A DNA stretch of 64,000 bases. Origin: Escherichia coli (lineage in GTDB: Bacteria; Pseudomonadota; Gammaproteobacteria; Enterobacterales; Enterobacteriaceae). Below, one piece after another: positions 2,908 to 57,365 of this stretch (position 1 is its first letter; each line of letters opens with the position of its first letter). The notes under the pieces are model-generated. The model did not search any database. It worked only from the letters and a program-made list of their open reading frames with translations, and had not been told where the DNA came from. A program made the position numbers and the translations under genes. The stretch lies in NCBI RefSeq assembly GCF_001677475.2, contig NZ_CP015229.1. One strand, written 5' to 3'.

Positions 2908-2918
2908 AAGGAATAGTA

Positions 2919-38821: not shown

Positions 38822-39880
38822 ATGCGGGTATTGCTTCGACCTGTTCTGGTACCGGAACTCGGACTGGTTATCGTTAAGCCAGGCCGTGAATCCATGCAGG
38901 TATTCCATAACGGCAGAGTACTGGTGGAACCGGAACCGAAAAGTATGCGCGGTCTGCCGTCCGGAGTCGTTCCTGCCGTTCGCCAGCCGCTGGAGGAGGA
39001 TAAATCATTACTGCCGTTTTTCAGTAACGCACGGGTGATTCGTGCTGCTGGTGGTGCTGGTGCATTGTCTGACTGGCTGTTGCGCCATATTAAATCCTGC
39101 CAGTGGCCACACGGCGATTATCACCACAGTGAAACCGTCATTCACCGTTATGGCGCTGGCGCGATGGTGTTGTGCTGGCACTGCGACAACCAGTTGCGTG
39201 ACCAGACAGCCGAATCACTCGAGCAACTTGCTCATCAAAACCTGTCAGCATGGATGATTGACGTCATCCGTCACGCAATGAATGGCACACAGGAGCGGGA
39301 ATTATCGCTGGCTGAATTATCCTGGTGGGCAGTCTGCAATCAGGTGGCGGACGCGCTACCGGAGACAGTATTACGTCGTTCTCTGAGGTTACGTGCGGAA
39401 AAAATCCGCTCGGTGTATCGCGAAAGCGACATCGTACCGGGAGAGCAGACCGCCACCAGCATACTAAAGCAGCGCACAAAAAATCTTGCGCCGTTGCCTC
39501 ACTCTCATCAGCAACAGAACCCGCCACAGGAAAAGACGGTGGTCAGCATTGCCGTTGATCCGGAGTCACCGGCTCAGTATCTCCAGCGCCAGAAACCACA
39601 ACGGGAAGAGATGCCCGTATACACGCGCTGGGTAAAAACGCAGAAATGCATGACGTGCGGTAATCAGGCAGATGATCCGCATCACATCATTGGTCATGGA
39701 CTGGGAGGGATGGGAACAAAGGCTGATGATTTGTTTGTTATTCCGCTGTGCCGTAAATGTCATAACGAACTGCACGCCGGGGTAAAAGATTTTGAAGAAA
39801 AACACGGCAGCCAGCTGTTGTTGCTGATTCGTTTTTTAATGCACGCGAGAAATTCGGGTGTCCTGAAGTGGAAAGCATGA
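38822..39880 (+). CDS. YdfU-like (DUF968-type) protein with C-terminal Cys/His zinc motif
   Basis: 352 aa; CMTCGN...HHIIGHG...CRKCHNELH. Confidence 0.5.
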   Translation: MRVLLRPVLVPELGLVIVKPGRESMQVFHNGRVLVEPEPKSMRGLPSGVVPAVRQPLEEDKSLLPFFSNARVIRAAGGAGALSDWLLRHIKSCQWPHGDYHHSETVIHRYGAGAMVLCWHCDNQLRDQTAESLEQLAHQNLSAWMIDVIRHAMNGTQERELSLAELSWWAVCNQVADALPETVLRRSLRLRAEKIRSVYRESDIVPGEQTATSILKQRTKNLAPLPHSHQQQNPPQEKTVVSIAVDPESPAQYLQRQKPQREEMPVYTRWVKTQKCMTCGNQADDPHHIIGHGLGGMGTKADDLFVIPLCRKCHNELHAGVKDFEEKHGSQLLLLIRFLMHARNSGVLKWKA

Positions 39881-40261
39881 ATGACTGAACGCATAGAATT
39901 TGTTTTGCCTTACCCGCCGACGGTAAACACCTACTGGAGACGTCATGGCAATACGTATTTCATCTCGGAAGTCGGAAAGCGTTATCGCCGTGATGTGGCT
40001 CTAATTGTTCGCCAGCAGCGACTGAAATTAAACCTGTCCGGAAGGCTGGCGATAAAGATTATTGCAGAGCCACCGGATAAGCGCCGTCGTGACCTGGACA
40101 ATATCCTGAAAGCACCGCTGGATGCGTTGACGCATGCGGGACTGCTTATCGACGACGAGCAGTTTGATGAAATCAATATTGTGCGCGGTCAGCTTGTTCC
40201 TGGTGGTCGGCTGGGCGTGAAGATTGACGAAATAATGCATGACGGGCAGGTCCAAAAATGA
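39881..40261 (+). CDS. rusA: Holliday junction resolvase RusA
   Basis: 126 aa; PPTVNTYWRRHGN...RRRDLDNILKAPLDALTHAGLLIDDEQ. Confidence 0.85.
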   Translation: MTERIEFVLPYPPTVNTYWRRHGNTYFISEVGKRYRRDVALIVRQQRLKLNLSGRLAIKIIAEPPDKRRRDLDNILKAPLDALTHAGLLIDDEQFDEINIVRGQLVPGGRLGVKIDEIMHDGQVQK

Positions 40262-41079
40262 AACTGGAAGATTTACCGAAATACTATTCCCCAAAATCGC
40301 CAGGCCTGACTGATGCATCCGCCTCGACGTCAAAAGATGCGCTGAGTATCACTGATGTGATGGCTGCGCAGGGTATGACACAGAACCGGGCTGAGATGGG
40401 ATTTTCTGCGTTCCTGGGGAAAATGGGCATTAGTATGAATGACAGGGCGCGGGCAACAGAATTACTGGCAGATTATGCATTAAGTCAGTGCGGTCGTGTG
40501 GCTGCGTTAAGAAAACTTCCGGCAGAGATAAAACCGGCAGTGATGCGCATTATGGCTTCGTACGCTTTTGAGGATTATGCCCGCAGCGCAGCGAGTAAAA
40601 AGCAATGCCCTTGTTGCCGAGGGGAAAAATTTATTGAAAGCGAGGTTTTTACAAACAAGGTTCAGTATCCGGATGGTAAGCCGCCAGTATGGGCAAAGTG
40701 TACAAAAGGCGTGTATCCGTCTTACTGGGAAGAATGGAAAAAAATCCGGGAGGTGGTGAAGGTTTCCTGTCCTGAATGTAAAGGGAAGGGAGAGATTTCG
40801 ACCGCCTGTAAAGACTGCCGTGGGCGTGGTGTAGCCATTCATCGTGAAGAGTCAGAAAAACGGGGTATGCCTGTTATCAGGGACTGCCAGCGTTGTGGCG
40901 GTCGTGGCTATGAAAGACAGCCGTCGACGGAGGCATTTAATGCCATATGTGAGGTGACAAATCAAATAACACGCGCGTCATGGGAAAAAACGGTTAAGCA
41001 ATTCTATGACACTCTGGTGGTTCGGTTTGACATTGAAGAGGCATGGGCGGAGCGGCAGTTAAAAAAGGTAACCAGATAA
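40258..41079 (+). CDS. Putative late-gene antiterminator (Q-like) with zinc-finger cysteines
   Basis: 273 aa; position after rusA and before tR'-like terminator and lysis genes. Confidence 0.5.
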   Translation: MKLEDLPKYYSPKSPGLTDASASTSKDALSITDVMAAQGMTQNRAEMGFSAFLGKMGISMNDRARATELLADYALSQCGRVAALRKLPAEIKPAVMRIMASYAFEDYARSAASKKQCPCCRGEKFIESEVFTNKVQYPDGKPPVWAKCTKGVYPSYWEEWKKIREVVKVSCPECKGKGEISTACKDCRGRGVAIHREESEKRGMPVIRDCQRCGGRGYERQPSTEAFNAICEVTNQITRASWEKTVKQFYDTLVVRFDIEEAWAERQLKKVTR

Positions 41080-41084
41080 CAAGG

Positions 41085-41186
41085 TTGATTTTTCCGGAAT
41101 CTGTGGTAAATTTTCCCTAACGATGGGCGTTTTATGCCTGACGTTAGGATGATTTTTACAACCCGCCGTTGAGCGGGTTTTTTATT
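41085..41186 (+). promoter_or_regulatory. Candidate late promoter with tR'-like terminator
   Basis: TTGATT-N17-TAAATT-like promoter, then hairpin aacccgccgttgagcgggtttttta ~60 nt downstream. Confidence 0.4.
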
Positions 41187-41305
41187 GCCCGAAAAACGGT
41201 ACAGGACGTTAAACGCCCTGGTGGTTATGAATACAGTCTTTCAGCTTGCTGGCTTTTTCGACAAGAGTTATTGGTGTGTCACGTTAACCAGAAAAGGGAA
41301 AAGGC

Positions 41306-41503
41306 ATGCTAAAACAGCAGGATATGACCGAAACCGCCAGAGCCGTGTTTAATGAATTAAGCGTCACCGAACCGGCGACAGTCGGGGAGATTGCTCAGAA
41401 TACTTACCTTTCACGCGAACGCTGTCAGTTAATACTGACCCAGCTTGTTATGGCGGGTCTGGCAGATTATCAGTTCGGTTGTTACAGACGCCTTCCGCAG
41501 TGA
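41306..41503 (+). CDS. Hypothetical small protein
   Basis: 65-aa ORF. Confidence 0.35.
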   Translation: MLKQQDMTETARAVFNELSVTEPATVGEIAQNTYLSRERCQLILTQLVMAGLADYQFGCYRRLPQ

Positions 41504-41639
41504 AGGCTTTTTTATTTGTGGTAATGGGCGGCTGGTGGGTGTTAGCGGCACCTGTCAGTCATGCTCTTATGTGTTGATGAGAATTTACCTTTTGGGGCTA
41601 TAATTGAGCCAACCAATTGCTAATTAAAGTAAAATTATA

Positions 41640-42353
41640 ATGGCTGTTGTCTGTTCAGTTATCATGGTTTGCTCCCCAATTAATATTTTTCTTGAAAAGG
41701 ATAAGTTGTCACTTAAGCCCGGCTCAGTCGTTCTGGCCACCAAATGCATCAGGGAGCTGTTCCTTATGCATTATGGCAAAGTTAAAATTGTCGATATAAA
41801 CCATTCCATAGTAAGTCAATATCTGGAAAGTCAGCATAAGCTGACGAGGACTCGTCTGACTGACATTCCGCTTTACCTGTTCCTGGAACCCAACAATCCT
41901 GCGTTGGCTGCGGCTTTAATTACCAGCCAGAGATTTTACGGAGATACCACGGATATGTTTCTTATGATGGCCTGCCTGTCGCTGTTTGAATCAGATGAAC
42001 GGATGTCATTATTTTTAAGTGGATGTTTATCCAGTATAAGTGCCAAAGTCAGAGCGATAATTCAAACAGATATATCTGCAAACTGGATGCTCGGTGCGAT
42101 TGCGTTACGCCTGCATATGAGTGAGAGTTTGTTAAAGATAAAACTGAAAAATGAAGGGCATATGTTCAGTCGCTTGTTGCTGGAAGAGCGGATGCGGGTT
42201 GCTGTAAATATGTTATGTTCCCGGGATGGGTATGGACAGACAGTGGCAGAAAAATGCGGTTATTCAAGTAGGTCCTATTTTATCTCTGTATTTCACCGCT
42301 ATTATGGCTTCCCGCCAGACAGATATGTATCTATGCAAGGGCTTGATTTTTGA
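41640..42353 (+). CDS. AraC-family transcriptional regulator (prophage cargo)
   Basis: C-terminal AraC HTH (...GYSSRSYFISVFHRYYGFPPDRY); AT-rich; start may be internal Met. Confidence 0.6.
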   Translation: MAVVCSVIMVCSPINIFLEKDKLSLKPGSVVLATKCIRELFLMHYGKVKIVDINHSIVSQYLESQHKLTRTRLTDIPLYLFLEPNNPALAAALITSQRFYGDTTDMFLMMACLSLFESDERMSLFLSGCLSSISAKVRAIIQTDISANWMLGAIALRLHMSESLLKIKLKNEGHMFSRLLLEERMRVAVNMLCSRDGYGQTVAEKCGYSSRSYFISVFHRYYGFPPDRYVSMQGLDF

Positions 42354-42379
42354 TTTCATCTGATTATTATTTTCGGCCC

Positions 42380-42455
42380 GGCCCTTTAGCTCAGTGGTGA
42401 GAGCGAGCGACTCATAATCGCCAGGTCGCTGGTTCAAATCCAGCAAGGGCCACCA
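42380..42455 (+). tRNA. tRNA with CAT anticodon (Met or Ile2-lysidine; ileZ-like)
   Basis: 76 nt cloverleaf, anticodon loop CTCATAA, terminal CCA. Confidence 0.8.
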
Positions 42456-42460
42456 CCTTA

Positions 42461-42541
42461 CCGCCATTAGCTCATCGGGAAGAGCAAATGACATGATAAC
42501 AGGGTTGTTGGTGCGGGGTTCGAGTCCTCGATGGCGGTCCA
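42461..42541 (+). tRNA. tRNA-like sequence (argN-like; non-canonical anticodon arm)
   Basis: Acceptor stem CCGCCAT/ATGGCGG, D-arm and T-arm (GGTTCGAGTCC) present, terminal CCA; anticodon stem does not fold canonically. Confidence 0.5.
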
Positions 42542-42554
42542 TTATCTGCATCAT

Positions 42555-42631
42555 GCGTTGTTAGCTCAGTCGGACAGAGCAATTGCCTTCTAAGCAATCG
42601 GTCACTGGTTCGAATCCAGTACAACGCGCCA
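42555..42631 (+). tRNA. tRNA-Arg (anticodon TCT; argO-like)
   Basis: 77 nt, anticodon loop CTTCTAA, GGTTCGAATCC T-loop, terminal CCA. Confidence 0.8.
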
Positions 42632-42804
42632 TACTTATTTTCCTGGCTCGCTTTTGCGGGCCTTTTTTGTATCCGCGCCACGCCCGGCGCATATCAAAAA
42701 CCACAGAGCCTTTCAGGGGTGAGCTTACGGGATGGTCAGTGTGACTTTCTCTGTGGGCTGGTCACCCCCGGGCGCAGGCTCACCCACTAAAAGGAAAAGT
42801 CACG

Positions 42805-43230
42805 ATGTTTGGTATTTTTAAAAAGAAAACCCGCAAGGCCATTACCGAAGTGAAGAAGATGGAGAACCGCGACGCAGTGGAGGCGACCGTCTGGGGTGCG
42901 TATTCCATTGCATACGCTGACGGCACCTGTGACGCGAAAGAAATCGCAGTGCTGGAGAAAACCATTGCAGCACTTCCTGCCTTTGCGCCGTTCTCCGGTG
43001 AGATTGCACAAATGAGTGCAAATATCCGCGCCCGTTATGAAGCGTCACCGCGTTCTGCCAATGCCGAAGCCCTTCGTCAGCTGGCTGATGTTGCCGGTAC
43101 TGATGATGCAGTTAATGTGCTGTGCCTGTGTCTGGATATCGCTGACCAGGACGGCATTGGCCCGGATGAAGAAGCGCAGCTCAAGAAAATTGCTCAGGCG
43201 CTGCAGTTGCCGCTGGAGCAGTACCTGTGA
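42805..43230 (+). CDS. TerB-like domain protein
   Basis: 141-aa acidic helical protein between tRNA cluster and holin; family assignment is tentative. Confidence 0.4.
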   Translation: MFGIFKKKTRKAITEVKKMENRDAVEATVWGAYSIAYADGTCDAKEIAVLEKTIAALPAFAPFSGEIAQMSANIRARYEASPRSANAEALRQLADVAGTDDAVNVLCLCLDIADQDGIGPDEEAQLKKIAQALQLPLEQYL

Positions 43231-43491
43231 AAAGTGCGCGCCTTGTGCTGGCTGCCATCCTGCTGTTTCTGGTAGTGGTGGTGGATTTTACCGGACGGCT
43301 GATGTCGGTACTGGCAGATGGTGTGCTGGTGGTGATGGTGCTGGTCGTGCTCCGGCCTTTACTGCGCAAATCTGAATAACACCACGCAAAAGGCATCTGC
43401 GGGTGCCTTTGATTGGGTGTTGTTTTTACGGGCCGCTGGTGGCCTTTTTTTGTTTCCATTACACAACGCCCGCATCTGCGAGGTGGGGGTT

Positions 43492-43707
43492 ATGAAATCC
43501 ATGGACAAAATTTCAACGGGCATTGCCTATGGCACCTCCGCAGGCAGTGCTGGCTACTGGTTTTTACAGTGGCTTGATCAGGTCAGTCCGTCACAGTGGG
43601 CTGCGATTGGTGTATTGGGGAGTCTGGTTCTGGGCTTCCTGACTTATCTGACAAATCTGTACTTCAAAATCAGAGAAGACAGAAGAAAGGCTGCGAGAGG
43701 TGAATAA
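43492..43707 (+). CDS. Pinholin (phage 21 S-like) with dual-start motif
   Basis: [29 protein letters not shown]...; two Met codons three residues apart. Confidence 0.8.
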
Positions 43708-44204
43708 TGCCTCCATCATTACGAAAAGCCGTTGCTGCTGCTATTGGTGGCGGGGCTATTGCTATAGCATCTGTGTTAATCACTGGCCCAGGTGGTAACG
43801 ATGGTCTGGAAGGTGTCAGTTACATACCATACAAAGATATTGTTGGTGTATGGACTGTATGCCACGGACACACCGGAAAAGACATCATGCTCGGTAAAAC
43901 GTATACCGAAGCAGAATGCAAAGCCCTCCTGAATAAAGACCTTTCCACGGTCGCCAGACAAATTAACCCGTACATCAAAGTCGATATACCGGAAACAATG
44001 CGCGGCGCTCTTTACTCGTTCGTTTACAACGTGGGTGCTGGCAATTTCAGAACATCGACTCTTCTTCGCAAAATAAACCAGGGTGATATCAAAGGCGCAT
44101 GTGATCAGCTACGGCGCTGGACATACGCTGGCGGTAAGCAATGGAAAGGGCTGATGACCCGTCGTGATATTGAGCGTGAAGTCTGTTTGTGGGGGCAGCA
44201 ATGA
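43707..44204 (+). CDS. SAR endolysin (T4-lysozyme fold)
   Basis: 165 aa; N-terminal Gly/Ala-rich SAR segment [18 protein letters not shown]. Confidence 0.8.
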
Positions 44205-44665
44205 GCAGGGTAACCGCGATTATCTCCGCTCTGGTTATCTGCATCATTGTCTGCCTGTCGTGGGCGGTCAATCATTACCGTGATAACGCCATCGCCTACA
44301 AAGAACAGCGTGATAAAAAAGTCAGTGAGCTGAAGCAGGCAATCGCCACCATCGCTGACATGCAGCAGCGTCAGCGTGATGTTGCTGCGCTCGATGCAAA
44401 GTACTCGAGAGAATTAGCCAATGCGAAAGCTGAAAATGAAACTCTGCGCGCTGATGTTGCCGCTGGTCGTCGTCGGTTGCACATCAAAGCAGTCTGTCAG
44501 TCAGTGCGTGAAGCCACCACCGCCTCCGGCGTGGATAATGCAACCAGCCCCCGACTGGCAGACACCGCTGAACGGGATTATTTCACCCTCAGAGAGCGGC
44601 TGATGACGATGCAGATGCAACTGGAAGGGGCACAGGAGTATATCCGCACTCAGTGCATTAAGTAG
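44201..44665 (+). CDS. Spanin inner-membrane subunit Rz
   Basis: N-terminal TM, coiled coil, overlaps endolysin stop. Confidence 0.75.
44421..44603 (+). CDS. Spanin outer-membrane lipoprotein Rz1, embedded in Rz
   Basis: 60 aa in +1 frame inside Rz; lipobox VVGC; PPPPP tract. Confidence 0.75.
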
Positions 44666-44707
44666 CCTTTTTATCGTGGTAAACATTTCGCAGGGTATGA
44701 GGTATTT

Positions 44708-45206: not shown

Positions 45207-45689
45207 ATGTCAGGACCTCCGAAAACCCCGCCACGCCTGCATTTGATACGAGGCAACCCCTCAAAGCGCCCCGTTAAAGACCACAAAAAAACCGCTAAAA
45301 AGGATGAAAAAGGTCTTCCTAAAATTCCGCAGCATTTAGGGGCTCAGGGGAAGTACTGGTTCAGGCGAATGGCGGAAGAGCTGAATGCGGAAGGGATCAT
45401 TTCTCAGCTTGATGCGCGTGCACTCGAGTTGCTGGTGGAAGCCTACACCGAATATCGGCATCACTGCGAAACACTCGATGTTGAGGGGTATACCTACCGC
45501 ACGGAAACGCAGAGCGGTGATGTACTGATTAAGGCGCACCCCGCGGCGGCAATGAAAGCGGATGCCTGGAAGCGGATCCGGGCAATGCTTGCAGAGTTTG
45601 GTATGTCACCGGCAAGCCGGGCTAAAGTAAATATCGCCGGACCGGATGATGTTGATCCGCTGGCGGAGCTTTTAAAAGCGAGAGACTGA
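45207..45689 (+). CDS. Terminase small subunit (P27-family-like)
   Basis: 160 aa; homologous to the satellite TerS at 59601. Confidence 0.7.
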   Translation: MSGPPKTPPRLHLIRGNPSKRPVKDHKKTAKKDEKGLPKIPQHLGAQGKYWFRRMAEELNAEGIISQLDARALELLVEAYTEYRHHCETLDVEGYTYRTETQSGDVLIKAHPAAAMKADAWKRIRAMLAEFGMSPASRAKVNIAGPDDVDPLAELLKARD

Positions 45690-46716
45690 TGGCAAAAGTG
45701 GCTGACGGGATCCGCTACGCCGAACGTGTTGTTGCAGGAGAAATTGTTGCTGGCGAATTTGTCCGCCTGGCCTGCCAGCGTTTTCTTGATGATCTGAAGT
45801 ACGGCGAAGAGCGGGGGATTTATTTCAGTGAACCCCGTGCGCAGCACATCCTGAATTTCTACAAATTTGTGCCTCATGTAAAAGGGGCGCTGGCAGGCCA
45901 GCCCATTGAGTTGATGGACTGGCATGTATTTATTCTCATTAATATTTTTGGTTTTGTCATTCCGCTGGTCAATGAAGAGACCGGGGAAGTTGTCATGCGC
46001 AGCGATGGCAGTGGACGTCCGGTGATGGTGCGCCGGTTCCGGACGGCGTACAACGAAGTCGCTCGTAAAAACGCAAAATCAACTCTGTCATCGGGTATCG
46101 GCCTGTATATGACGGGGGCAGATGGTGAAGGCGGAGCTGAGGTGTATTCAGCCGCAACCACGCGTGACCAGGCCAGAATCGTGTTTGAAGACGCCAAAAA
46201 TATGGTCAGAAAAGCCCGGTCGACACTCGGGCGGTTGTTTGATTTCAACAAGCTGGCGATTTACCAGGAGCAGAGCGCATCAAAATTTGAACCGCTTTCT
46301 TCGGATGCAAACAACCTAGACGGTCTGAACATCCACTGCGCCATTATTGATGAGCTGCATGCACATAAAACCCGCGACGTGTGGGACGTTCTGGAAACGG
46401 CAACCGGTGCCCGTCTGCAGTCCCTGTTATTTGGTATCACCACGGCGGGCTTTAACAAGGAAGGGATTTGTTACGAGCAACGCGATTACGCCATCAAGGT
46501 ATTGCGAGGCTATAACAGCGACGTGGAGGGCGCGGTAAAAGACGACTCCTACTTTGCGATTATTTACACGCTCGATGAGGGAGATGATCCGTTTGATGAA
46601 ACGGTCTGGCAGAAAGCGAATCCGGGCCTGGGCATCTGTAAACGCTGGGATGATCTGCGTCGTCTGGCGAAAAAAGCGAAGGAGCAGGTCTCGGCGCGGG
46701 TGAATTTTTTCACGAA
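45689..46716 (+). pseudogene. Prophage terminase large subunit, N-terminal ~343 codons, interrupted by satellite insertion
   Basis: Aligns with satellite TerL N-terminus (PHVKGA..G.PIEL..W); frame runs into unrelated satellite DNA and stops at 46882. Confidence 0.8.
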
Positions 46717-46845
46717 GAAAGTAACATCACGCCGTAACAACAGTGCAGTCTGTCCTGATTTTTTTAGTAACCAAATGAAAGAAAAAGATTTTTTCTTGTT
46801 CGTCGTTTTTGTTTTTTCTGGATGGTTCTGGCTGTTTTCATCATT

Positions 46846-46867
46846 TGTGTATTGCACTGTGTATTGC
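46846..46867. repeat. Tandem GTGTATTGC repeats near satellite left end
   Basis: tgtgtattgcactgtgtattgc; near-identical copy at 62023-62043. Confidence 0.6.
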
Positions 46868-46887
46868 AAAAACGGGTTATAAATCAC

Positions 46888-48111
46888 ATGGCGCTAAACA
46901 AACTGAGCGATAAAAAACTTCGTTCCCTGCTTGGACGCAGGAGTGAGAGACAGGAAACCATCGCTGATGGTAACGGGCTTTCGGTACGGGTCAGTAAATA
47001 CGGATGTGTTAGTTTTGTTTTCTTTTACAGACTGGCGGGAAGGGGAACCGCGCCCATCTGGCTGACACTTGGAAAATATCCTGATCTGAGTCTCAAATCA
47101 GCGAGAGAGATGCGCGATCAGTGTCGAACCTGGCTTGCGGAGGGCAGAGATCCACGGATTCAGATAAAAATTGAACGGGAAGCCACCTTGCAACCTGTTA
47201 CCGTTCGTGAGGCACTTGAATACTGGCTTGATAATTATGCAATGGATAAGCGTAGGGGAGCAGAACATATCAGGCAGTGCTTTGGTAAACATATTTATCC
47301 GGTGATTGGTCATGTACCACTTAGTGATTGCTCTATATCTATGTGGATTAAGTGTTTTGACAAAATAAAAAAAGTAGCACCTGTACAGGCCGGAGCTTTG
47401 TTGCGTATATCAAAACAGGCGCTTAAATTTTGTAGGGTAAGAAAATACGCGATTAGTCATGAAATTGATGATCTTGAGGTCTGTGATGTGGGAAAAAAGT
47501 CTGCGCGAAGAAGCAGGGTTTTAACAGATGATGAAATCAGAGATTTATGGCGAAGTATTAATACTGATTATGACAATCACGAATTATCATATGAAAACCG
47601 AATTATTTTACGTTTCCTGGTAGTTTTTGGTTGCCGACTGTCAGAAGTATTACTGTCGTCCTGGGGAGAGTGGGATTTTGATAAGAAATTATGGCGCGTT
47701 CCCGCTGAACATAGCAAAAATGGCAGGGAAATAATCAGACCGATTCCTGATGGCATGTTTAACTGGTTAGTTACGTTAAAAAAAATAACAGGTAACAAAG
47801 AAAATGTGATTGGGTTTGATATGCGTCAGTGTACGGCAAGCGTAACTATCGGTAAGACATGGAAAAGGATGAAACACTCGGAGAAATGGACGGCGCATGA
47901 TATGCGAAGAGTGTTTGCCACAAAACTAAGTGATCATGGTTTTGAACATAATGTGGTTGAACAGTTGCTTGGGCACACATTAGGCGGTGTTGCCGGGGTT
48001 TATAACAGAAGCCAGTATATGGACAGAAAAAAAGAAGCTATGAACTGGTGGTACGACTATCTGAATAAGCAAATTAGTGGTGACGGTAATGATTCAAATA
48101 GTTACGCGTGA
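46888..48111 (+). CDS. int: P4-type tyrosine integrase
   Basis: 407 aa from MALNKLSDKKLRSLLGRR..GLSVRVSKYG (typical P4-family N-terminus); HDMRRVFAT...LGH...Y. Confidence 0.85.
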   Translation: MALNKLSDKKLRSLLGRRSERQETIADGNGLSVRVSKYGCVSFVFFYRLAGRGTAPIWLTLGKYPDLSLKSAREMRDQCRTWLAEGRDPRIQIKIEREATLQPVTVREALEYWLDNYAMDKRRGAEHIRQCFGKHIYPVIGHVPLSDCSISMWIKCFDKIKKVAPVQAGALLRISKQALKFCRVRKYAISHEIDDLEVCDVGKKSARRSRVLTDDEIRDLWRSINTDYDNHELSYENRIILRFLVVFGCRLSEVLLSSWGEWDFDKKLWRVPAEHSKNGREIIRPIPDGMFNWLVTLKKITGNKENVIGFDMRQCTASVTIGKTWKRMKHSEKWTAHDMRRVFATKLSDHGFEHNVVEQLLGHTLGGVAGVYNRSQYMDRKKEAMNWWYDYLNKQISGDGNDSNSYA

Positions 48112-48142
48112 AGAACTTGAAAATGATAAAACAATCGACAGG

Positions 48143-48310
48143 ATGATTAAGGAAGATGAATGTGCATGGTTAACCGCTCTTGGCAGGAGACACAGATCGT
48201 TACTTGAAAAGGAAGGAAAATTTCCACGAAAAATATGTATTGGTCCACAAACAAAAGTCTGGCGCTTATCTGAGGTGCTGGAATGGGTAAAAGGTGAATG
48301 GAAACCCTGA
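48143..48310 (+). CDS. AlpA-family DNA-binding protein, copy 1
   Basis: ORF 48077-48310; start at the internal Met (MIKEDECAWLTALG...); LSEVLEWV. Confidence 0.6.
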   Translation: MIKEDECAWLTALGRRHRSLLEKEGKFPRKICIGPQTKVWRLSEVLEWVKGEWKP

Positions 48311-48333
48311 GCTAAATTAAATGAGATATAATC

Positions 48334-48357
48334 AACCCGTCTTTTGGCGGGTTTTTT
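48334..48357 (+). terminator. Intrinsic terminator
   Basis: aacccgtcttttggcgggttttttt. Confidence 0.6.
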
Positions 48358-48373
48358 TATAGGTGATATTTTT

Positions 48374-48652
48374 ATGCAAAAATTTATTTATCCTACACCC
48401 GAAGAACGCATTCAGATTCTGAAAGATCATGGCGAACCGTATGATCGCCGTATACGCGAACATGAGTGTGCCAATCGTACCGGGCTTTCAAGAAGCAGAC
48501 GTTGGGTACTTGAACAGGAGGGAGCATTTCCTGCTCGTGCTCATTTAGGGAAAGTGTCTGTTTCCTGGTTGCTCTCTGATGTGCTCTGGTGGGTTATGCA
48601 TCCGCCAGGAGTAAAGGAAGTAAACAGCCCATACAAAAACGCCAATAAGTAA
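48374..48652 (+). CDS. AlpA-family DNA-binding protein, copy 2
   Basis: From MQKFIYPTPEER; ECANRTGLSRSRRWVLEQEGAFPA. Confidence 0.6.
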   Translation: MQKFIYPTPEERIQILKDHGEPYDRRIREHECANRTGLSRSRRWVLEQEGAFPARAHLGKVSVSWLLSDVLWWVMHPPGVKEVNSPYKNANK

Positions 48653-48660
48653 TTACCGAC

Positions 48661-48690
48661 AACCCCGCACCACGCAATGCGGGGTTTTTT
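48661..48690 (+). terminator. Intrinsic terminator
   Basis: aaccccgcaccacgcaatgcggggtttttt. Confidence 0.65.
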
Positions 48691-48706
48691 GTATGTGAGG
48701 TAGAAA

Positions 48707-49303
48707 GTGATGAATAAAAATATTGCCGTGACGGGCAAGGGTGACGCACGTCATGTGAAAAAATTCTGTGATATTCGTGATCTGGTCGTTCTGCGCTTTG
48801 ATAGTGTGAACGTTCGCGTGGTGTATCTGAACGGCGATCCGTGGTTTGTTGGCGCTGATGTGTGTGCGGCGCTGGAAATTAGCAACGTTACCGATGCTGT
48901 TTCAGTTCTGGATAACGATGAGGTAATGACCCTAGCTTTAACCGAGGGTCATTCAGGTAAGCGTGGTGGTGCCAGAAGTTGGAATGTTGTATCAGAATCA
49001 GGTTTTTACAAGTTGATCGCCAGAAGTCGCAAAGCTGTTAATCCTGGCACGTTCGCCCATCGTTTCAGTAATTGGGTATTCAGAAATGTGATACCGGGTA
49101 TCAGAAAAACGGGGGCTTATGGTATCCCGTGGGGCGCATTACAGGATTTTTCCCGCCGCAAAGAGCAATATCAGGTAAGTGCCAGCGAGAAGGGGAGGGA
49201 GCTACAGGCATGTAAGCGCAAAAAGCGTGAGCTAGAGGAAGAAGAAAAAAGGCTGATACGTGAATATCAGCCTGAGTTTTACTTTGGTGAGCGTATTCAG
49301 TAA
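48707..49303 (+). CDS. Bro-N domain protein (antirepressor-like)
   Basis: 198 aa; N-terminal ...VYLNGDPWFVGADVCAALEISNVTDAVSVLDNDE. Confidence 0.6.
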   Translation: MMNKNIAVTGKGDARHVKKFCDIRDLVVLRFDSVNVRVVYLNGDPWFVGADVCAALEISNVTDAVSVLDNDEVMTLALTEGHSGKRGGARSWNVVSESGFYKLIARSRKAVNPGTFAHRFSNWVFRNVIPGIRKTGAYGIPWGALQDFSRRKEQYQVSASEKGRELQACKRKKRELEEEEKRLIREYQPEFYFGERIQ

Positions 49304-49915
49304 CCACACGCGGTGCTGATTATACGGTACATCGTGTTAACCGAGAAGCTACCCACCAGCAAGGCAAAATCTTCTGCTAAAAAATGACATATGGCCAGTC
49401 GTCTGGAAAGCATGAAATTTTACAAAAATGGAAAATGAAGATTTTTATTGTGCTGGTGGGTAAAAACAAAAAGCGCCCCGTTGCCGGAGCGCCCTTGCGA
49501 ACAATTAACCTACTGCGCAAAAAAATGAATCTGTGCAGGGGGATTATATCAACCGTGTGACGAAGCGCCACAATTGCCGGATAACAGGCAAAGAAAAGGC
49601 CACCCGCTACGGTGGCCCTTCGACACAAGCTACACGTTATCCCCAACGCATGAGCGTCGCCAACAATGCCACATTTGCGGCTGGTGGGCAATGTGATCAG
49701 TGTGCTGGCTTGCTGGTGGGCTATTCCTGCTCTTTGGCCTTGCGTTGCTTTAGTGCTGCACGAGCTAATCAATCATTGTATATGAGGCGTGGAATCTTTT
49801 TTTCATCACTCCTGCATACACGCTCATTACTGACGTGTTCATTGCTGATGCAATTTCCCAGGAGGAAAGCAAATAAAAACAAAGAGCCAAGCCAGTATAG
49901 TACTTGCTGCATAAG

Positions 49916-50101
49916 TTATTCCTTATCTGATTCTTTGGTTTTTTTCCGTTGGCGGCGTTTGATCTCGCCACGCATGGCTGCGCTTATAAACTGCCCTGTA
50001 CTTTCGCCATCTTCTTTCACGTTTTCCATGCCTTCAATAATTTCATGGGCAATACGTGCAGTTACAGATTGTGATTTTGCATTCTTTGGACCTGTTGCCA
50101 T
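49916..50101 (-). CDS. Small putative ribbon-helix-helix regulator
   Basis: 61 aa from MATGPKNAKSQSVTARIAHEIIEG; GAGGGG RBS; divergent from rightward operon. Confidence 0.4.
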   Translation of the reverse strand: MATGPKNAKSQSVTARIAHEIIEGMENVKEDGESTGQFISAAMRGEIKRRQRKKTKESDKE

Positions 50102-50122
50102 GTCTAACCCCTCATGTTTTTG

Positions 50123-50204
50123 GTGTAAGACAATATACACGAAAAAAAACTATTTTAAAGGGTTGACGTGTAAGACACTGTTGTTTTATGTTGTGTCTTA
50201 CACC
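50123..50204. promoter_or_regulatory. Candidate operator array: three GTGTAAGACA(C) sites
   Basis: Sites at 50123-50132, 50168-50178 and inverted 50194-50204 (11-bp palindrome, 15-bp spacer) overlapping a TTGACG -35-like hexamer. Confidence 0.5.
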
Positions 50205-50300
50205 TTGAGTGTTCAAGGTTCAGAAACTGCGAAGCCCGTAGGTGCCGCTAACACCCACAGGCTTCTAACCACCAACGATAGTAATAGTATCGAGGCAGCT

Positions 50301-50504
50301 ATGAGAAATCATACCACACACCCGCAAGGGCGGGACTCGCACAACCTGAATAAATACATCTGGCGTTTTATCGCCCTGAGCACGGCACAACCGCGCGTAA
50401 TTCACATCGTGGCCACCAGCGAACAGGAAGCGCGTCAGCAATCTCCTGATGGCTGCGTGATGGTATTCGCCGCCCGTATTCGTCAGGGGTCACATCATGC
50501 GTAA
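50301..50504 (+). CDS. Small Icd-like/Ash-family-like protein, copy 1 (tentative)
   Basis: C-terminal WRF...ATSEQEARQQ...VFAARIRQG motif shared with the next ORF. Confidence 0.35.
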   Translation: MRNHTTHPQGRDSHNLNKYIWRFIALSTAQPRVIHIVATSEQEARQQSPDGCVMVFAARIRQGSHHA

Positions 50505-50790
50505 AAACCGCTTGCAAAAAATTATCACGGGACTGTATGCTTCCCGCGTCACCCACATGGTGACCGGGTTTGACAGCCTGAATACTACAGCGGACAGCCG
50601 CTTACATTCCGATATGCGGTTTTTTTGTGTCCGTAAACCTACCCATACCCGCATTATGGCGGGGCGTAACGGGGGAGCCTTTGCGCTCGCTGGTTCCTGT
50701 AGTGCCAGTCTGTCAACCCTGTTACGTCTCGCCACCATGTTTGACAGCGTAGTAGCGAGACTCCTTAATTTCACTACAGGAGCCTTTCAC

Positions 50791-50964
50791 ATGGCTGTAT
50801 CCACACGCCCTTATTTTGTCTGGCGCTTCATGCAGTGCCATGAAAAACAAACCTCACTCTTTACCGTCACGGCTGCCACTGAGCGCGAAGCACGCGCGCA
50901 GCTGCCGCACGCACATCTGATTTTTGTCGCCCGTATCCGTCAGGGGGTAAACCATGTTCAGTAA
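50791..50964 (+). CDS. Small Icd-like/Ash-family-like protein, copy 2 (tentative; may extend upstream to 50497)
   Basis: C-terminal VWRF...AATEREARAQ...IFVARIRQG. Confidence 0.35.
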   Translation: MAVSTRPYFVWRFMQCHEKQTSLFTVTAATEREARAQLPHAHLIFVARIRQGVNHVQ

Positions 50965-51175
50965 CAACACACCGGACGCAGCCGCAAAAGCGTTAACCAC
51001 GCTGATGCACGCGCTGATTGATATTGAATGCACGGCAGAGCTTGCGCAGAACAAAGGGAAGGAAGATTACACCGCGTTCTGCCTGGAATGTATCCGCTAT
51101 ATTTCTTCCCGCTCTCTGGATGAGGCTAAAAATATTCTTATTGCTGATTGTGAAAATGGGGGGGGTTATGCGTGA
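50954..51175 (+). CDS. Hypothetical protein
   Basis: 73-aa ORF. Confidence 0.3.
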   Translation: MFSNNTPDAAAKALTTLMHALIDIECTAELAQNKGKEDYTAFCLECIRYISSRSLDEAKNILIADCENGGGYA

Positions 51176-51391
51176 TGATCGTTTTAATTCCCTGAAACAG
51201 GAATTTTCCGGCGTGCCTGATGATGCGGCTGATGCGCTTTCGTCAATATCTGAAATAATGAGGGCGGCTTTTTTTCTTTCTTTGCACTGATGAGCACAGG
51301 GATACAGGGTTAAATATTCTTGATATCGCCGCTAACTATGCTGACTTCGTAACGGAAGCAGCGTCAAGAAAAACAACGGGTGGGGATTAAT

Positions 51392-51625
51392 ATGCGTGAT
51401 ATTTACATTGAAACAATAGACCGCGTATTTCTTGCACTTTCTCACAGTGAAAACATGCTGGAAATATTACGCATATGGCTTGAAACGCTTGGAGATAATG
51501 AACGTGATAAACAGAAATCCAGAATTGCCACGGCATTAATAACGCTTCTTGAGCCTGTAATAAATGAGTTACAGGAAATAGAGACATTACACGACAGATA
51601 TAAAGAACAGCACACCGGAGAATAA
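51392..51625 (+). CDS. Hypothetical protein
   Basis: ORF 51380-51625, start at MRDIYIETID. Confidence 0.35.
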   Translation: MRDIYIETIDRVFLALSHSENMLEILRIWLETLGDNERDKQKSRIATALITLLEPVINELQEIETLHDRYKEQHTGE

Positions 51626-51630
51626 AAATA

Positions 51631-51930
51631 ATGAAACTTAAATATTCTGGCTTAACTGCCAGCGGCCCCGCTCGGCCTGAAATCCGTAACGGCGATATTT
51701 ACCGCGACCAGTACGGTGGCACGGTAATGATTAAGGGCGTGGCGGGACGGTGCGTTACCTACCGCCGTGAAGGTTACGAATATGACTGCGTGATGCCTGT
51801 TTATCAGTTCCGGCGTGATTTTTCTCTGGTACAGGCAGCGCAACGCGGTAAGCCCACCAGCAACGCCAGGGCACGTGCAAACATCCAGAAACTGAAAACC
51901 ATGATTAACGGATTCAGGGGTAAAAAATGA
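51631..51930 (+). CDS. Hypothetical protein
   Basis: 99-aa ORF upstream of the rep gene. Confidence 0.35.
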   Translation: MKLKYSGLTASGPARPEIRNGDIYRDQYGGTVMIKGVAGRCVTYRREGYEYDCVMPVYQFRRDFSLVQAAQRGKPTSNARARANIQKLKTMINGFRGKK

Positions 51931-53336
51931 AACTGGCACCGAACGTAAAACTATTACCGAAAGATAAGCACACAGAAGCGATTATTTTCGCGGGTGTTGA
52001 TGCTCACTCATTTGCAGAGCACTACATCATTGCACAGGCCAAAAAGGCGGGAGACCCGACGCCTCCCGTTTACCTGGGCCGTTATCAGTTAAGCGAACTG
52101 GATAACTTGCAGATTGTTGATGAGGGGCGGTACAGGGCGACAGTGATACGCGCCGGAAATATTGACGAAGCGCAGCTGCTAACCATCGCGACGAAACTGG
52201 CGATCGCCGGAGTCCAGGAAGCGCGGCTGCTTTCTGAAAATTTCGAATTGCTGGAGAAATGGACCGACCAGCTACCACGGTTGCGGGAGACATGGGAGAG
52301 AGGGGAAAGCCTGGTAATGGCAAAAAACCCCCAACGAAACACCACGCTACCGATGAGCGTTGGATCTGCCGGATACGACACGCAGCTGGATTACGTGGTT
52401 AAGGGCATTATTCCGGCGTCGTCGCTGTGCAGCATATACGGGGCGAGCGGTTCCTATAAATCATTCCTTGCGGGTTCGTGGGCGTGTCACGTTTCCACGG
52501 GCCGCCAGTGGGGAGGCCGCAGGGTTGCGCATGGTGCCGTTCTCTATGTGGTTGGTGAAGGCGGTATTGGTGTACCACGTCGTGTAAAAGCCTGGGAGGT
52601 TGTGCACGATGTACAGGTGAAAAATCTGTACCTGGTAAACCGCCCCGTCTTTCCGGCGGTCCCGCTTGATGTTGATGAAATGGTTATCGCTGCCCGTCAG
52701 GTGGAGCGGGAAACGGGTAAACCTGTACGCATGATTATTCTGGATACGCTGGCGCGTTGCTTTGGCGGCAATGATGAAAATGATTCCCGTGATATGGGGG
52801 CGTTTATCCGTGGGTGTGACGAACTGAAACGACGCACAGGGGCTACGGTGCTGGTGGTTCACCATTCCGGCAAGGATGAGACGAAAGGCGCGCGAGGTTC
52901 CAGTGCATTCCGTGCGTCACTGGATGCCGAATACCGGATACGCAGAGAGGACGCAGGAAGCGAGGCGCTGGTAATCTCATGTACCAAAATGAAGGACGCG
53001 GAGGAACTTAAAGAAGCCGCCTACGATTTGCGGGTGGTGGAGCTATTTACCGACGCTGACGGCGAATTAATTACGTCGCTGGTGGTGGTGGATAAGCCGC
53101 GTCCTCCCGTTGAACTGGAGCGCATCGAGGAGGCAGGCAACAAGACGGAAAACCATACCGCGTTATGGGGGTGCATCCGGTCGCGCACACAGAACGGTGA
53201 TAAGTGCACTATTGCGCTGTTACGTGACGATATGAAAAAGCTGGGGTATGAGATGAAGCACTTCAGCCGCTGGTTACGCAAGCTGGAAAAAGACGGGGTT
53301 ATTTATATCGACGGTGATGACGTAGGCACGCTGTAA
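51927..53336 (+). CDS. Replication protein: RepA-like RecA-fold helicase/ATPase with C-terminal DNA-binding region
   Basis: 469 aa; Walker A GASGSYKS, Walker B MIILD, HHSGKDETKGARGSSA; iterons immediately downstream. Confidence 0.7.
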   Translation: MKLAPNVKLLPKDKHTEAIIFAGVDAHSFAEHYIIAQAKKAGDPTPPVYLGRYQLSELDNLQIVDEGRYRATVIRAGNIDEAQLLTIATKLAIAGVQEARLLSENFELLEKWTDQLPRLRETWERGESLVMAKNPQRNTTLPMSVGSAGYDTQLDYVVKGIIPASSLCSIYGASGSYKSFLAGSWACHVSTGRQWGGRRVAHGAVLYVVGEGGIGVPRRVKAWEVVHDVQVKNLYLVNRPVFPAVPLDVDEMVIAARQVERETGKPVRMIILDTLARCFGGNDENDSRDMGAFIRGCDELKRRTGATVLVVHHSGKDETKGARGSSAFRASLDAEYRIRREDAGSEALVISCTKMKDAEELKEAAYDLRVVELFTDADGELITSLVVVDKPRPPVELERIEEAGNKTENHTALWGCIRSRTQNGDKCTIALLRDDMKKLGYEMKHFSRWLRKLEKDGVIYIDGDDVGTL

Positions 53337-53530
53337 AAAGTGGGGTGCAAAAGTGGGGAGAGTGAGCAAAACGCCCGAAAAACGCCATTATTCCCCACTT
53401 TTCAACGTATATATACCCAAAAAAGTGGGGAGTAAAAAAATCTTTATGAAACAGCACGATAAAAATCAAAAACTCCCCACCTGTAACGAGGTGGGGAAGT
53501 GTAAAAAGTGGGGCGCAAAAGTGGGGAGTG
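53336..53530. repeat. Iteron array, candidate satellite replication origin
   Basis: Eight or more copies of AAAGTGGGG / CCCCACTTT in both orientations within ~195 bp. Confidence 0.7.
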
Positions 53531-53786
53531 ATGGGGAAATGACCAGAATACGCAGAGACAGAACAGAGCCGAAATATAAAGCGTTAGACATGACAGAGCT
53601 TTCCTTAACGGTGGCAATCAAAGCGATAGACCGCCACACGCGGGAAGGATACGCGAAGGAACATCCCGAACTGATAAGCGCATTCATGGCCGCAGCGGCT
53701 GCAAACTTTGCCACGCTGACAGAACGGGAGACAGCCGAGGCAGAACAGGTAACAACCATCAACGTTAAAACCGGAGGGGTGGAATC

Positions 53787-54212
53787 ATGACGGCACAGAT
53801 AGCAGCTTACGGGCGGCTGGTGGAGGACCCGCAGGTAAAACAGACCAGCAAGGGAACACCCATGACGCTGGCGAGTATGGCGGTTCCCCTGCCATGCAGC
53901 CAGGCAGATGACGGAACGGCGACGATGTGGTTATCCGTCCTGGCGTTTGGCAGACAGGCCGACGCACTGGCAAAACACCGCAAAGGCGAACTGGTGAGCG
54001 TGGCGGGTAACATGCAGGTAAGCCAGTGGACAGGGCAGAACGGCGAAACGCGGCAGGGCTGGCAGGTTATTGCAGACAGCGTAATCAGTGCGCGAACGGC
54101 GCGACCGGGCGGCAAAAAAGGCCAACAGGGGCAGGCCACTGACGCACTGAACAGGGCAAAACAACAGACAGGCCAGCACGATGATCCGTACGGGGACGGG
54201 ATACCGTTTTAA
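53787..54212 (+). CDS. ssb: Single-stranded DNA-binding protein
   Basis: 141 aa; OB-fold-like N-terminus, Gly/Gln-rich linker, acidic tail ending DDPYGDGIPF. Confidence 0.7.
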   Translation: MTAQIAAYGRLVEDPQVKQTSKGTPMTLASMAVPLPCSQADDGTATMWLSVLAFGRQADALAKHRKGELVSVAGNMQVSQWTGQNGETRQGWQVIADSVISARTARPGGKKGQQGQATDALNRAKQQTGQHDDPYGDGIPF

Positions 54213-54227
54213 GCAGTGAGGTACAGC

Positions 54228-54509: not shown

Positions 54510-54554
54510 TAACGGTTGTTAACTGTTTCTGGTATCGTGGTAGCAGGAGGAAAC

Positions 54555-54803: not shown

Positions 54804-54811
54804 AATAATAA

Positions 54812-54842
54812 TGGCCTGGTATTTTCCAGGCCATTTTTTTTT
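54812..54842 (+). terminator. Intrinsic terminator
   Basis: ggcctggtattttccaggcc followed by T-run. Confidence 0.7.
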
Positions 54843-56754: not shown

Positions 56755-56803
56755 TGAGCAAAGGGGGCTTCGGCCTCCTTTTTCAGCTTTATGGAGTACA
56801 CCG

Positions 56804-57364: not shown

Positions 57365-57365
57365 T

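Follow-up and report, generated by a model that had tools for sequence, protein, structure and literature searches.

Between its late antiterminator gene and its lysis genes, this E. coli prophage carries what is very probably a cargo cassette in which a PsrB-type AraC/XylS regulator has its own low-level promoter, followed by a relic of the tRNA gene argN between two intact tRNA genes and by a separate TerB/DUF3927 unit. The window, by which we mean the whole stretch of DNA analyzed, is 64,000 nucleotides of contig NZ_CP015229.1 (assembly GCF_001677475.2). The arrangement is a standard one: this is the known and widely shared Q-to-lysis cargo ("moron") cassette of E. coli and Shigella lambdoid prophages. 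The order is Q gene, terminator, 65-aa winged-helix ORF, AraC-type gene, ileZ, argN relic, argO, TerB-like gene, DUF3927 gene, and holin (Table 1).

Table 1. Features of the Q-to-lysis region, in window coordinates.
Feature	Position	Strand	Basis or detail
Q-type late antiterminator, 273 aa	40258..41079	+	Pfam, PHROG
Candidate late promoter (PR'-like)	41085..41112	+	TTGATT, 16 nt, TAAATT; by eye, inferred
tR'-like intrinsic terminator	41160..41186 (hairpin 41160-41179)	+	7-bp stem (5 G-C pairs), then TTTTATT
65-aa winged-helix protein (SfV orf47 / "TrmB family")	41306..41503	+	PHROG 331, E 2e-37
Terminator-like hairpin after 65-aa ORF	41490..41515	+	
Promoter-like site upstream of regulator	41577..41604	+	ATGAGA, 16 nt, TATAAT; 10/12 matches
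PsrB-type AraC/XylS regulator, 237 aa, intact	41640..42353	+	
Promoter-like site just upstream of ileZ	42343..42370	+	TTGATT, 16 nt, TATTAT; 9/12, consensus match only
ileZ, anticodon CAT	42380..42455	+	ARAGORN; Rfam tRNA 72.5 bits
argN relic, tRNA-like pseudogene	42461..42541	+	anticodon arm replaced by hairpin with 3-nt loop
argO, tRNA-Arg, anticodon TCT (reads AGA/AGG)	42555..42631	+	ARAGORN; Rfam 71.7 bits
Terminator-like hairpin closing tRNA unit	42645..42672	+	
TerB-like / TciA-like protein, 141 aa	42805..43230	+	PHROG 632, E 4e-65
DUF3927 / TciB-like small membrane protein	43227..43379	+	PHROG 1470, E 2e-23
Terminator-like hairpin ahead of lysis cassette	43430..43455	+	
Holin	43492..43707	+	PHROG 20 and 9876; downstream hotspot boundary
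Endolysin	43707-44204	+	PHROG 7
Rz/Rz1	44189-44665 and 44421-44603		assigned by ORF position alone

The upstream boundary is a protein with two Pfam PF03589 Antiterm domains (E 5e-30 and 1e-21) and a DnaJ CXXCXGXG zinc finger, which matches PHROG 127 "anti-termination protein Q-like" (E 1e-110). We assign it to the PF03589 Q-family antiterminators, with a promoter-proximal terminator after the gene and a predicted role in antitermination. In Shigella phage SfV, the homologous site directly follows Q and carries the annotation of a putative rho-independent terminator. An earlier note on this DNA was right to place a Q-like gene with a tR'-like terminator ahead of the cargo. The candidate PR'-like promoter was absent from our promoter scan because it matches 8 of 12 consensus positions, one fewer than the scan threshold of 9/12. 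A weak Rfam Trp_leader match (41098-41186) ends where the tR'-like hairpin ends and is most likely due to it. We likewise set aside YrlA (42486-42610), whose 28.5 bits fall well short of its gathering score (69) and which overlaps the tRNA genes; Plastid-ycf2 and Trp_leader, also well below their gathering scores, overlap tRNA genes or the terminator, and all three matches most likely arise from these overlaps.

The earlier note missed two ORFs: the 65-aa one, which has a terminator of its own, and the DUF3927/TciB-like one. The 65-aa protein matches Pfam TrmB, MarR, and HTH_24 weakly (E 1.5e-3 to 1.6e-2). Its gene is a conserved backbone gene after tR'; it precedes the AraC gene at almost all of the 80 viral loci and the methylase gene in Stx2a phages. 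We considered and rejected an identification with PNB-2, the partner of a phage 16S rRNA methyltransferase (PMC10810198), because phage PA8 encodes the methyltransferase and PNB-2 (143 aa) close to its left genome end, outside the Q-to-stx slot. In PADLOC, the 65-aa protein gave a chance-level match only (E 1.3e-3), and the regulator, TerB-like, DUF3927, and Q proteins matched no defense model. The terminase gene of the prophage is interrupted, so that the prophage appears defective and may no longer run a normal late program.

The regulator ORF is uninterrupted, colinear with 237-aa homologs, and AT-rich, with a GC content of 42.4% against 49.6% for the window. Its C-terminal domain matches Pfam HTH_18 (E 8.9e-10, residues 155-229) and HTH_AraC (E 1.4e-5), and among solved structures it is nearest to the GadX DNA-binding domain (PDB, E 1.5e-16) and Rns. 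By this double helix-turn-helix domain, the predicted product is an AraC/XylS transcription factor, as the earlier note had described it. Homology continues through the N-terminal domain: a YdeO profile aligns (E 7e-30) with its positions 1-230 on regulator residues 1-229, and BLASTP alignments with GadW, YdeO, AppY, and the PatE candidate start at residue 1. These alignments place the regulator in the GadX/GadW/YdeO/AppY/PatE/Psr subgroup. It falls far below the NCBIfam equivalog cut-offs for YdeO (104.4 vs 348 bits) and GadX (84.5 vs 500). Full-length identity is 38% to the PatE candidate (Z0321, CP-933H / O-island 8), 35% to GadW, 30% to YdeO, and 29% to AppY. GadX is 41% identical, over the DNA-binding domain only. 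Unlike the regulator, PatE and AppY lie elsewhere in their prophages, outside the Q-to-lysis slot.

Identity is far higher to the Psr proteins of O157:H7. The regulator is 92.0% identical over 237 aa (BLASTP) to Z2104/PsrB of EDL933 prophage CP-933O, of which we examined 50 kb that contain no other AraC-type gene. It is also 92% identical to a second O157:H7 paralog, which is itself 91% identical to Z2104; this fits the published PsrA-PsrB identity of 90%. The commonly cited PsrA locus tag, z1789, corresponds to no AraC gene in accessible data and is annotated "putative envelope protein". Moreover, in CP-933N (O-island 50, in resequenced EDL933) and Sakai Sp6 this slot lacks an AraC-type gene and contains just a Q gene with a broken TerB. 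Assigning the second paralog as PsrA is thus indirect, while the link to PsrB (Z2104) is direct. As judged by these comparisons, the protein is a Psr-type prophage AraC-like regulator, in the same slot as Z2104, which bears out the Psr/PatE-type comparison suggested in the earlier note, where GadX and YdeO were also named. A RefSeq protein of strain CFSAN004176 is 100% identical.

A dN/dS of 0.24 overall, and of 0.12 in the DNA-binding half, indicates purifying selection; together with the intact frame, this speaks against the disrupted pseudogene that the earlier note had allowed for. The regulator differs from PsrB by 19 substitutions, ~9 of them in the DNA-binding half, and its targets could therefore differ. 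A shift of target specificity in this third Psr allele is improbable, however.

How might the regulator be transcribed? We propose that in the lysogen it would be read at a low level from its own predicted promoter, and that after induction Q-mediated read-through would raise its transcription to a high level. Terminator-like hairpins mark off each unit of the cassette. For the hairpin at 41490, a comparison of seven homologous loci shows the stem kept in all but one copy and the loop varying. In the same seven loci, the perfect TATAAT 36 nt before the regulator start codon is invariant, and one -35 base varies. Because the whole intergenic region upstream of the regulator is 94% conserved, conservation of the hexamers is not specific evidence for a promoter.

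Alternatively, the regulator could be strictly late and Q-dependent, silent in the lysogen and expressed solely upon induction, by Q-modified RNA polymerase that reads from PR' through the terminators at 41160 and 41490. This would suit a gene that shares the strand of the Q gene, ~550 nt upstream of it, and lies inside the late unit of related phages, the transcription unit in which some of them carry stx, particularly as the site at 41577-41604 is a consensus match only and promoter-like sites are no commoner in our sequence than in shuffled sequence (3 found vs 3.4 expected). Yet we consider it unlikely. Two reviews give PsrA/PsrB deletion phenotypes with prophage induction unmentioned, those of PsrA among them (PMC10877973, PMC8565820), and a published supplement lists Z2104 transcripts among RNA-seq reads from EDL933 cultures in standard growth (PMC4048457). 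In addition to the invariant TATAAT, terminators bracket the regulator unit, as is typical of autonomously expressed cargo genes. Hairpin-bounded units, with promoter-like sites ahead of the regulator gene and ileZ, fit the published phenotypes described without mention of induction. Thus, of the Q dependence proposed in the earlier note, one part stands and another does not: read-through would boost expression of the regulator, but is probably not required for a gene that lies behind two hairpins and next to a promoter-like site of its own.

The tRNA trio described in the earlier note comes down to two tRNAs, ileZ and argO (~72 bits each), and a non-canonical middle element that is a relic. 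Both tRNAs fold into a cloverleaf with a 7-nt anticodon loop, are called by ARAGORN, and lie above the Rfam tRNA gathering score of 29 bits; the doubt raised there, that the tRNAs might score below threshold, applies to the middle element alone. ileZ is identical to ileZ of Stx2a and Stx2k phages, and its homologs are annotated as tRNA-Ile in RefSeq; from this identity, we expect it to read AUA after lysidine modification. argO differs from phage argO by one base. AUA, AGA, and AGG make up 12 of the 237 regulator codons (5.1%), compared with 0-1.4% in three host genes, and they are also enriched in several neighboring phage genes. ileZ and argO may therefore supply decoding of rare AUA and AGA/AGG codons.

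In the middle element, 28 unrelated nucleotides stand in place of the 23-nt anticodon region of argN. ARAGORN does not call it, and it attains 32.4 bits on the Rfam tRNA model only in a search of its own, with the score coming from the acceptor, D, and T arms alone. Its predicted fold has a 3-nt loop and no 7-nt anticodon loop, with a z-score of -1.0 against shuffles. Because it lacks an anticodon loop and its relatives decay without compensation, we classify it, on sequence grounds, as a pseudogene.

Could the element instead be a maintained functional RNA, such as a processing spacer, a decoy for a nuclease or modification enzyme, or an unusual decoder? The acceptor, D, and T arms are intact in this copy, and RefSeq labels a 95.7%-identical copy "tRNA-OTHER". 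Its 24-nt replacement arm recurs unchanged in 119 viral contigs, among them that of the inducible Stx2e phage phiP27, and 5220 of 5426 E. coli genomes have a relative with 82.6% identity between yahL and yahM. However, in the commonest variants (54+13+9 of 118 copies) the TTCGA T-loop is gone, a G-run varies in length, and the acceptor and D stems have changed without compensation. Other prophages have a normal argN or different tRNAs at that position. Taken with the missing anticodon loop and the absent ARAGORN call, this makes a maintained function improbable. Also improbable is that the anticodon-less argN represents one of several states of a single phage tRNA scaffold (acceptor stem CCGCCAU/AUGGCGG), with prophages swapping its anticodon arm, the closed form kept, and an unannotated relative in the E. 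coli core genome at yahL-yahM. The anticodon-arm states of such a scaffold would be Arg-UCG, Lys-UUU, and the closed hairpin, the last acting as a decoy or processing element. We retain the reading of the middle element as an argN relic.

Downstream of the tRNA unit, the TerB-like protein of the earlier note is present. Its PHROG match is strong and its Pfam match borderline: PF05099 (TerB) aligns in two partial matches (E 1.1e-3 and 0.3), NCBIfam gives no match, and PDB sequences give chance matches only. Its homologs have precomputed PF05099 matches and carry names such as "tellurite/colicin resistance protein" and "TciA", the Sakai homolog being annotated "TciA/TerB-like protein". The start of the DUF3927 gene overlaps the TerB-like stop codon; in homologs DUF3927 is annotated beside TerB, and a fused TerB+DUF3927 protein, P0160, exists. 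The two genes would form a separate, translationally coupled cargo unit, in the place where related phages carry stx or nanS-p. The pair resembles TciA/TciB of enterobacterial plasmids and prophages, whose 141-aa homologs are 76-98% identical across Enterobacterales and have the same DUF3927 partner; some are on contigs of ~100-110 kb, and a few are named as plasmid-borne. In the literature, we found no test behind the "tellurite/colicin resistance" names of TciA/TciB.

A close relative of the cassette is in EDL933 CP-933O (O-island 57), which has the same order of antiterminator, 65-aa ORF, regulator (Z2104, likewise AT-rich), ileZ, argN relic, argO, TerB, and DUF3927. The two differ in the upstream antiterminator (Pfam Antiterm Q here, DUF1133 in CP-933O) and in holin type, and this prophage has no nanS-p esterase or PerC/Pch gene before the lysis genes. 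Strain JEONG-1266 has the same late-region gene order. In Sakai Sp10 the regulator is missing, and TciA/TerB comes after ileZ4, a relic without annotation, and argO4; the argN replacement is shared by Sp10, CP-933O, phiP27, and strain GB089. SfV shares the backbone, and window positions 41104-41562 are 82.7% identical to its terminator and orf47. Its order is Q, terminator, orf47, orf48, terminator, holin, and its cargo is orf48, a 350-aa ORF about the size of the Stx2a-phage methylase, in place of tRNAs, regulator, or TerB.

Comparison with Stx phages agrees with the earlier proposal that this is the slot in which such phages carry stx. In 933W-type Stx2 phages, ileZ-argN-argO lie upstream of stx2 in the same order and spacing and with the same downstream terminator; there stx follows the tRNAs where TerB does here, and the argN anticodon region, replaced here, is normal. 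phiSTEC1575-Stx2k (OQ243220) has the same winged-helix gene, regulator (90% identity), and ileZ-argN-argO after its antiterminator, followed by stx2k A/B and iraM in place of TerB and DUF3927. Homology to Stx phages stops at window position 42679, just past the argO terminator. No stx is carried here, as the earlier note had also stated: a tblastn search of the entire window with Stx2k A and B as queries gave no match at E<=1.

The cassette occurs in 725 of 5426 complete E. coli genomes, with a median of 2 copies each, and the genomes listed as carrying it are largely of EHEC/STEC serotypes. It is also present in 80 of 80 viral contigs examined, behind three antiterminator families, in the order winged-helix gene (at nearly all loci), AraC gene, ileZ, further tRNAs, and cargo. 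The downstream cargo in these contigs is TerB, nanS-p, or stx, with stx at TerB's place in an Stx2k phage and one viral contig.

What the regulator would do in its host can be proposed from PsrA and PsrB, which, according to the two reviews, activate gadE, yhiF, and hdeA and repress type III secretion (PMC10877973, PMC8565820). Given its 92% identity to PsrB, the regulator is expected to bind AT-rich promoters in the host's GAD acid-fitness island (gadE, hdeA). Binding there would raise acid resistance and, in LEE strains, would indirectly lower type III secretion. By homology with the proteins of this published work (PMC10877973), the action on host genes suggested in the earlier note is supported, and the regulator is a likely modulator of host acid resistance and, where LEE is present, of type III secretion. 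It is very improbable that the gene is decaying into a pseudogene, or that it regulates phage genes alone with no host effect: it sits in a seemingly defective prophage, with no canonical ribosome-binding site obvious upstream of the ATG at 41640 and a shorter 195-aa form annotated in some databases, but its frame is intact and colinear with the 237-aa homologs (dN/dS 0.12-0.25), the YdeO profile aligns from residue 1, and PsrB is reported to bind the host hdeA and gadE promoters.

Beyond its annotation, as a PsrB-type regulator, ileZ, an argN pseudogene, argO, and a TerB/TciA-like gene with DUF3927, the locus itself matters little. For the family of phages, the regulator, the 65-aa winged-helix gene, and ileZ move together as one fixed block behind at least three unrelated antiterminator families, and stx, nanS-p, or TerB is swapped in just after the argO terminator, a picture of the hotspot that is useful and was already implicit.

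Positions 41085-43230 belong to the late region of a lambdoid prophage. The surrounding chromosome is E. coli-like: its rlmKL and uup genes (799-4826) match essentially all complete E. coli genomes at 98.9% identity, and none more closely. The inventory of the interval agrees with the earlier note, which had assigned the cassette genes to the right families and had listed every element except a 65-aa ORF and a DUF3927 ORF. The reported absence of an stx-like ORF was likewise borne out, as tblastn with Stx2k A and B as queries found no match in the window. An IMG/VR contig (locus L133) matches the 5 kb around the regulator (window 39743-44700) at 100% identity, whereas among complete E. coli genomes the best match spans just 90% of the cassette, at 93.7%. 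The host may be a Shigella, or an E. coli lineage not represented among those genomes.

Features of the cassette, its flanks and the element inserted in the terminase gene
Feature	Position	Strand	Remark
DUF968/HNH-like gene	38822-39880	+	
RusA	39881-40261	+	
Antiterminator (Q), 273 aa	40258-41079	+	two Pfam Antiterm (PF03589) domains
Terminator-like hairpin after Q	41160-41179	+	
Winged-helix ORF, 65 aa	41306-41503	+	own hairpin at 41490-41507
AraC-type ORF (regulator), 237 aa	41640-42353	+	
tRNA, anticodon CAT (ileZ)	42380-42455	+	
tRNA-like element (argN relic)	42461-42541	+	
tRNA-Arg, anticodon TCT (argO)	42555-42631	+	
Hairpin after argO	42645-42662	+	
TerB-like ORF, 141 aa	42805-43230	+	
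DUF3927 ORF, 50 aa	43227-43379	+	overlaps TerB stop codon
Hairpin after DUF3927 ORF	43430-43445	+	
Holin and endolysin, then ORFs in Rz/Rz1 position		+	Rz/Rz1 assigned by position only
Tyrosine integrase (inserted element)	46822-48111		
Anti-repressor and repressor-like gene (inserted element)			
Primase/helicase-like gene (inserted element)	51927-53336		
Major head protein (inserted element)	55609-56754		
Complete large terminase (inserted element)	59941-61602		

The regulator contains an AraC-type double helix-turn-helix domain. The YdeO profile aligns to its residues 1 to 229 (E 7e-30), far below the equivalog cut-off, as is the GadX profile. When the named relatives were fetched and compared directly with the regulator protein, the AraC-type gene of CP-933O in EDL933 and a second O157:H7 paralog (strain JEONG-1266) were each 92.0% identical to it. 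Identity was 38% for the AraC-type gene of CP-933H (the PatE candidate), 35% for GadW, 30% for YdeO, 29% for AppY and, in the DNA-binding domain only, 41% for GadX. The CP-933O gene is Z2104, with which the gene order agrees, and Z2104 is named PsrB in two reviews (PMC10877973, PMC8565820). Between the two O157 paralogs, identity is 91%, in agreement with the published 90% between PsrA and PsrB. We conclude that the cassette is the same system as the EDL933 PsrB locus, which has another antiterminator and other lysis genes around it. Its regulator is a sequence variant (92% identity to PsrB) that is already in RefSeq; E. coli CFSAN004176 has a 100% identical protein, and two further IMG/VR contigs (L138 and L139) carry an identical regulator. 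The reviews place psrA at z1789 in O-island 50; Z1789 is annotated as 'putative envelope protein' (PMC4048457 supplement), and the resequenced CP-933N of EDL933 (L012, 1628001-1678000) holds no AraC-type gene. In JEONG-1266, a lambda-Q-like gene and a CPBP protease gene precede the second Psr paralog.

The regulator could, as the earlier note allowed, have been a disrupted pseudogene. Its ORF is uninterrupted. Measured against four relatives, dN/dS comes to 0.20-0.25 for the whole gene and 0.12-0.15 for the DNA-binding half; the gene is functional, not a pseudogene. Its GC content is 42.4%, compared with 49.6% for the window, and its 6 AUA, 3 AGA and 3 AGG codons (5.1%) are the highest share in the neighbourhood, the same codons making up 0-1.4% of three host genes. 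This enrichment fits a long-standing idea, reportedly that of Plunkett et al. in 1999 for phage 933W, that ileZ/argN/argO-type tRNAs serve rare-codon cargo.

The cassette is organized as a chain of short units, each closed by a terminator-like hairpin (seven found versus 3.2 expected), and the hairpin after Q corresponds to the annotated SfV terminator. Promoter-like sites lie upstream of the regulator (41577-41604, TATAAT) and of ileZ (42343-42370). Across seven loci, the TATAAT of the former is invariant and one -35 base varies, while in the hairpin upstream of this site the loop varies and the stem is preserved in all loci except one. The region holds no excess of promoter-like matches overall (3 found versus 3.4 expected), so promoter use is something that we infer. 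EDL933 cultures grown under standard conditions contained Z2104 reads (PMC4048457 supplement), and the phenotypes of PsrA deletion are described without mention of prophage induction (reviews PMC10877973, PMC8565820). Most likely, the regulator would be expressed autonomously at a low level in the lysogen, and Q read-through would boost its expression after induction. The proposed Q-dependence is therefore only partly supported.

The ileZ gene has the same sequence as that of Stx2 phages, and argO differs from theirs by one base. The refuting condition that the earlier note set for the tRNAs, a score below threshold, applies to the middle element alone, which it had described as non-canonical: ARAGORN made no call for it, and it reaches 32.4 bits on the Rfam tRNA model only if a 101-nt stretch is searched alone, with the anticodon arm skipped. 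Its acceptor stem, its T arm and most of its D arm are shared with argN, but 23 nt (position 26, anticodon arm and variable loop) are replaced by 28 unrelated nucleotides with the predicted fold of a closed hairpin with a 3-nt loop. In 118 copies with the same replacement arm, the commonest variants lack the T-loop and have a G-run of variable length and uncompensated acceptor-stem and D-stem changes. Since such a pattern bears the signature of decay, the middle element is best read as a decaying argN relic. In decayed IMG/VR copies, the G homopolymer at the former T-loop ranges from about 5 to 13 G between contigs, which could reflect slippage or an assembly artefact. Sakai Sp10 carries this relic without annotation between ileZ4 and argO4, as does EDL933 CP-933O; in strain GB089 it is labelled 'tRNA-OTHER'. 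An unannotated tRNA-like sequence that has the relic's acceptor, D and T arms (82.6% identity to it) overlaps the yahM start in the yahL-yahM intergenic region of E. coli K-12 MG1655 (L007:2501-2582). It occurs in 5220/5426 complete E. coli genomes; ARAGORN reads it as a 'tRNA-Ser(gga)' whose loop is non-canonical, and Rfam gives no match. In E. coli STEC309 (L003:4224-4533) and several IMG/VR loci, tRNA-Lys(UUU), Thr(UGU) and Gly(UCC) take the place of argN-argO after ileZ, and this tRNA-Lys has the acceptor stem, D arm and T arm of argN, as though an exchange had affected the anticodon arm alone.

The regulator gene is present in 725 of the 5426 complete E. coli genomes (92-95% nucleotide identity), typically twice per genome; those listed are largely O157:H7, O26, O111, O145, O121, O103, O104:H4 and O55:H7. 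In a survey of 80 viral contigs encoding a regulator relative, ileZ always follows it and the 65-aa ORF precedes it wherever that flank is present. The antiterminator upstream belongs to one of three unrelated families (Pfam Antiterm, lambda-Q-like or DUF1133). At the second tRNA position there is argN, the relic or the Lys-Thr-Gly set, and the cargo 3' of the tRNAs is TerB, a nanS-p esterase or, in one case, stxA. Annotated examples confirm this order. In phage phiSTEC1575-Stx2k, stx2k comes after the block; Stx2a phages and SfV have a methylase-sized gene at the regulator's position. Homology to Stx phages stops at 42679, directly past the argO terminator, and this point marks the exchange boundary.

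Assignment of the TerB-like ORF rests on PHROG 632 (E 4e-65), the RefSeq naming of its homologs, their recorded PF05099 matches and a borderline Pfam match of the ORF itself (E 1.1e-3). Across Enterobacterales there are homologs with 76-98% identity, some of them on ~100-110-kb contigs (a few named plasmid-borne), under names that include 'tellurite/colicin resistance protein' and 'TciA'. A 196-aa protein (P0160) fuses TerB to DUF3927 (PF05099 and PF13064); this fusion and the 4-bp start/stop overlap of the two ORFs suggest that their products act together. PADLOC has no model for either protein. The TerB region of Actinobacillus phage vB_Apl-pPE4 (PP818812.1, 17433-18020) is 95.9% identical to that of the window, a closeness unexpected for so distant a host as Actinobacillus pleuropneumoniae, to which the record is attributed.

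Further downstream, the large-terminase gene of the prophage is split (45689-62855), with its N-terminal part extending to ~46.75 kb and its C-terminal part at ~62130-62855. The roughly 15-kb element between the halves has similar GTGTATTGC(A/G)CTGTGTATTGC motifs on both sides (~46845 and 62022), and has the appearance of a small phage or capsid-forming satellite that integrated in terL.

Overall, the cassette shows no departure from known kinds, and the sole threads with novelty are side observations: exchange of anticodon arms on a single tRNA scaffold, the relic's relative in the core genome, and a second integrative element within the terminase gene.
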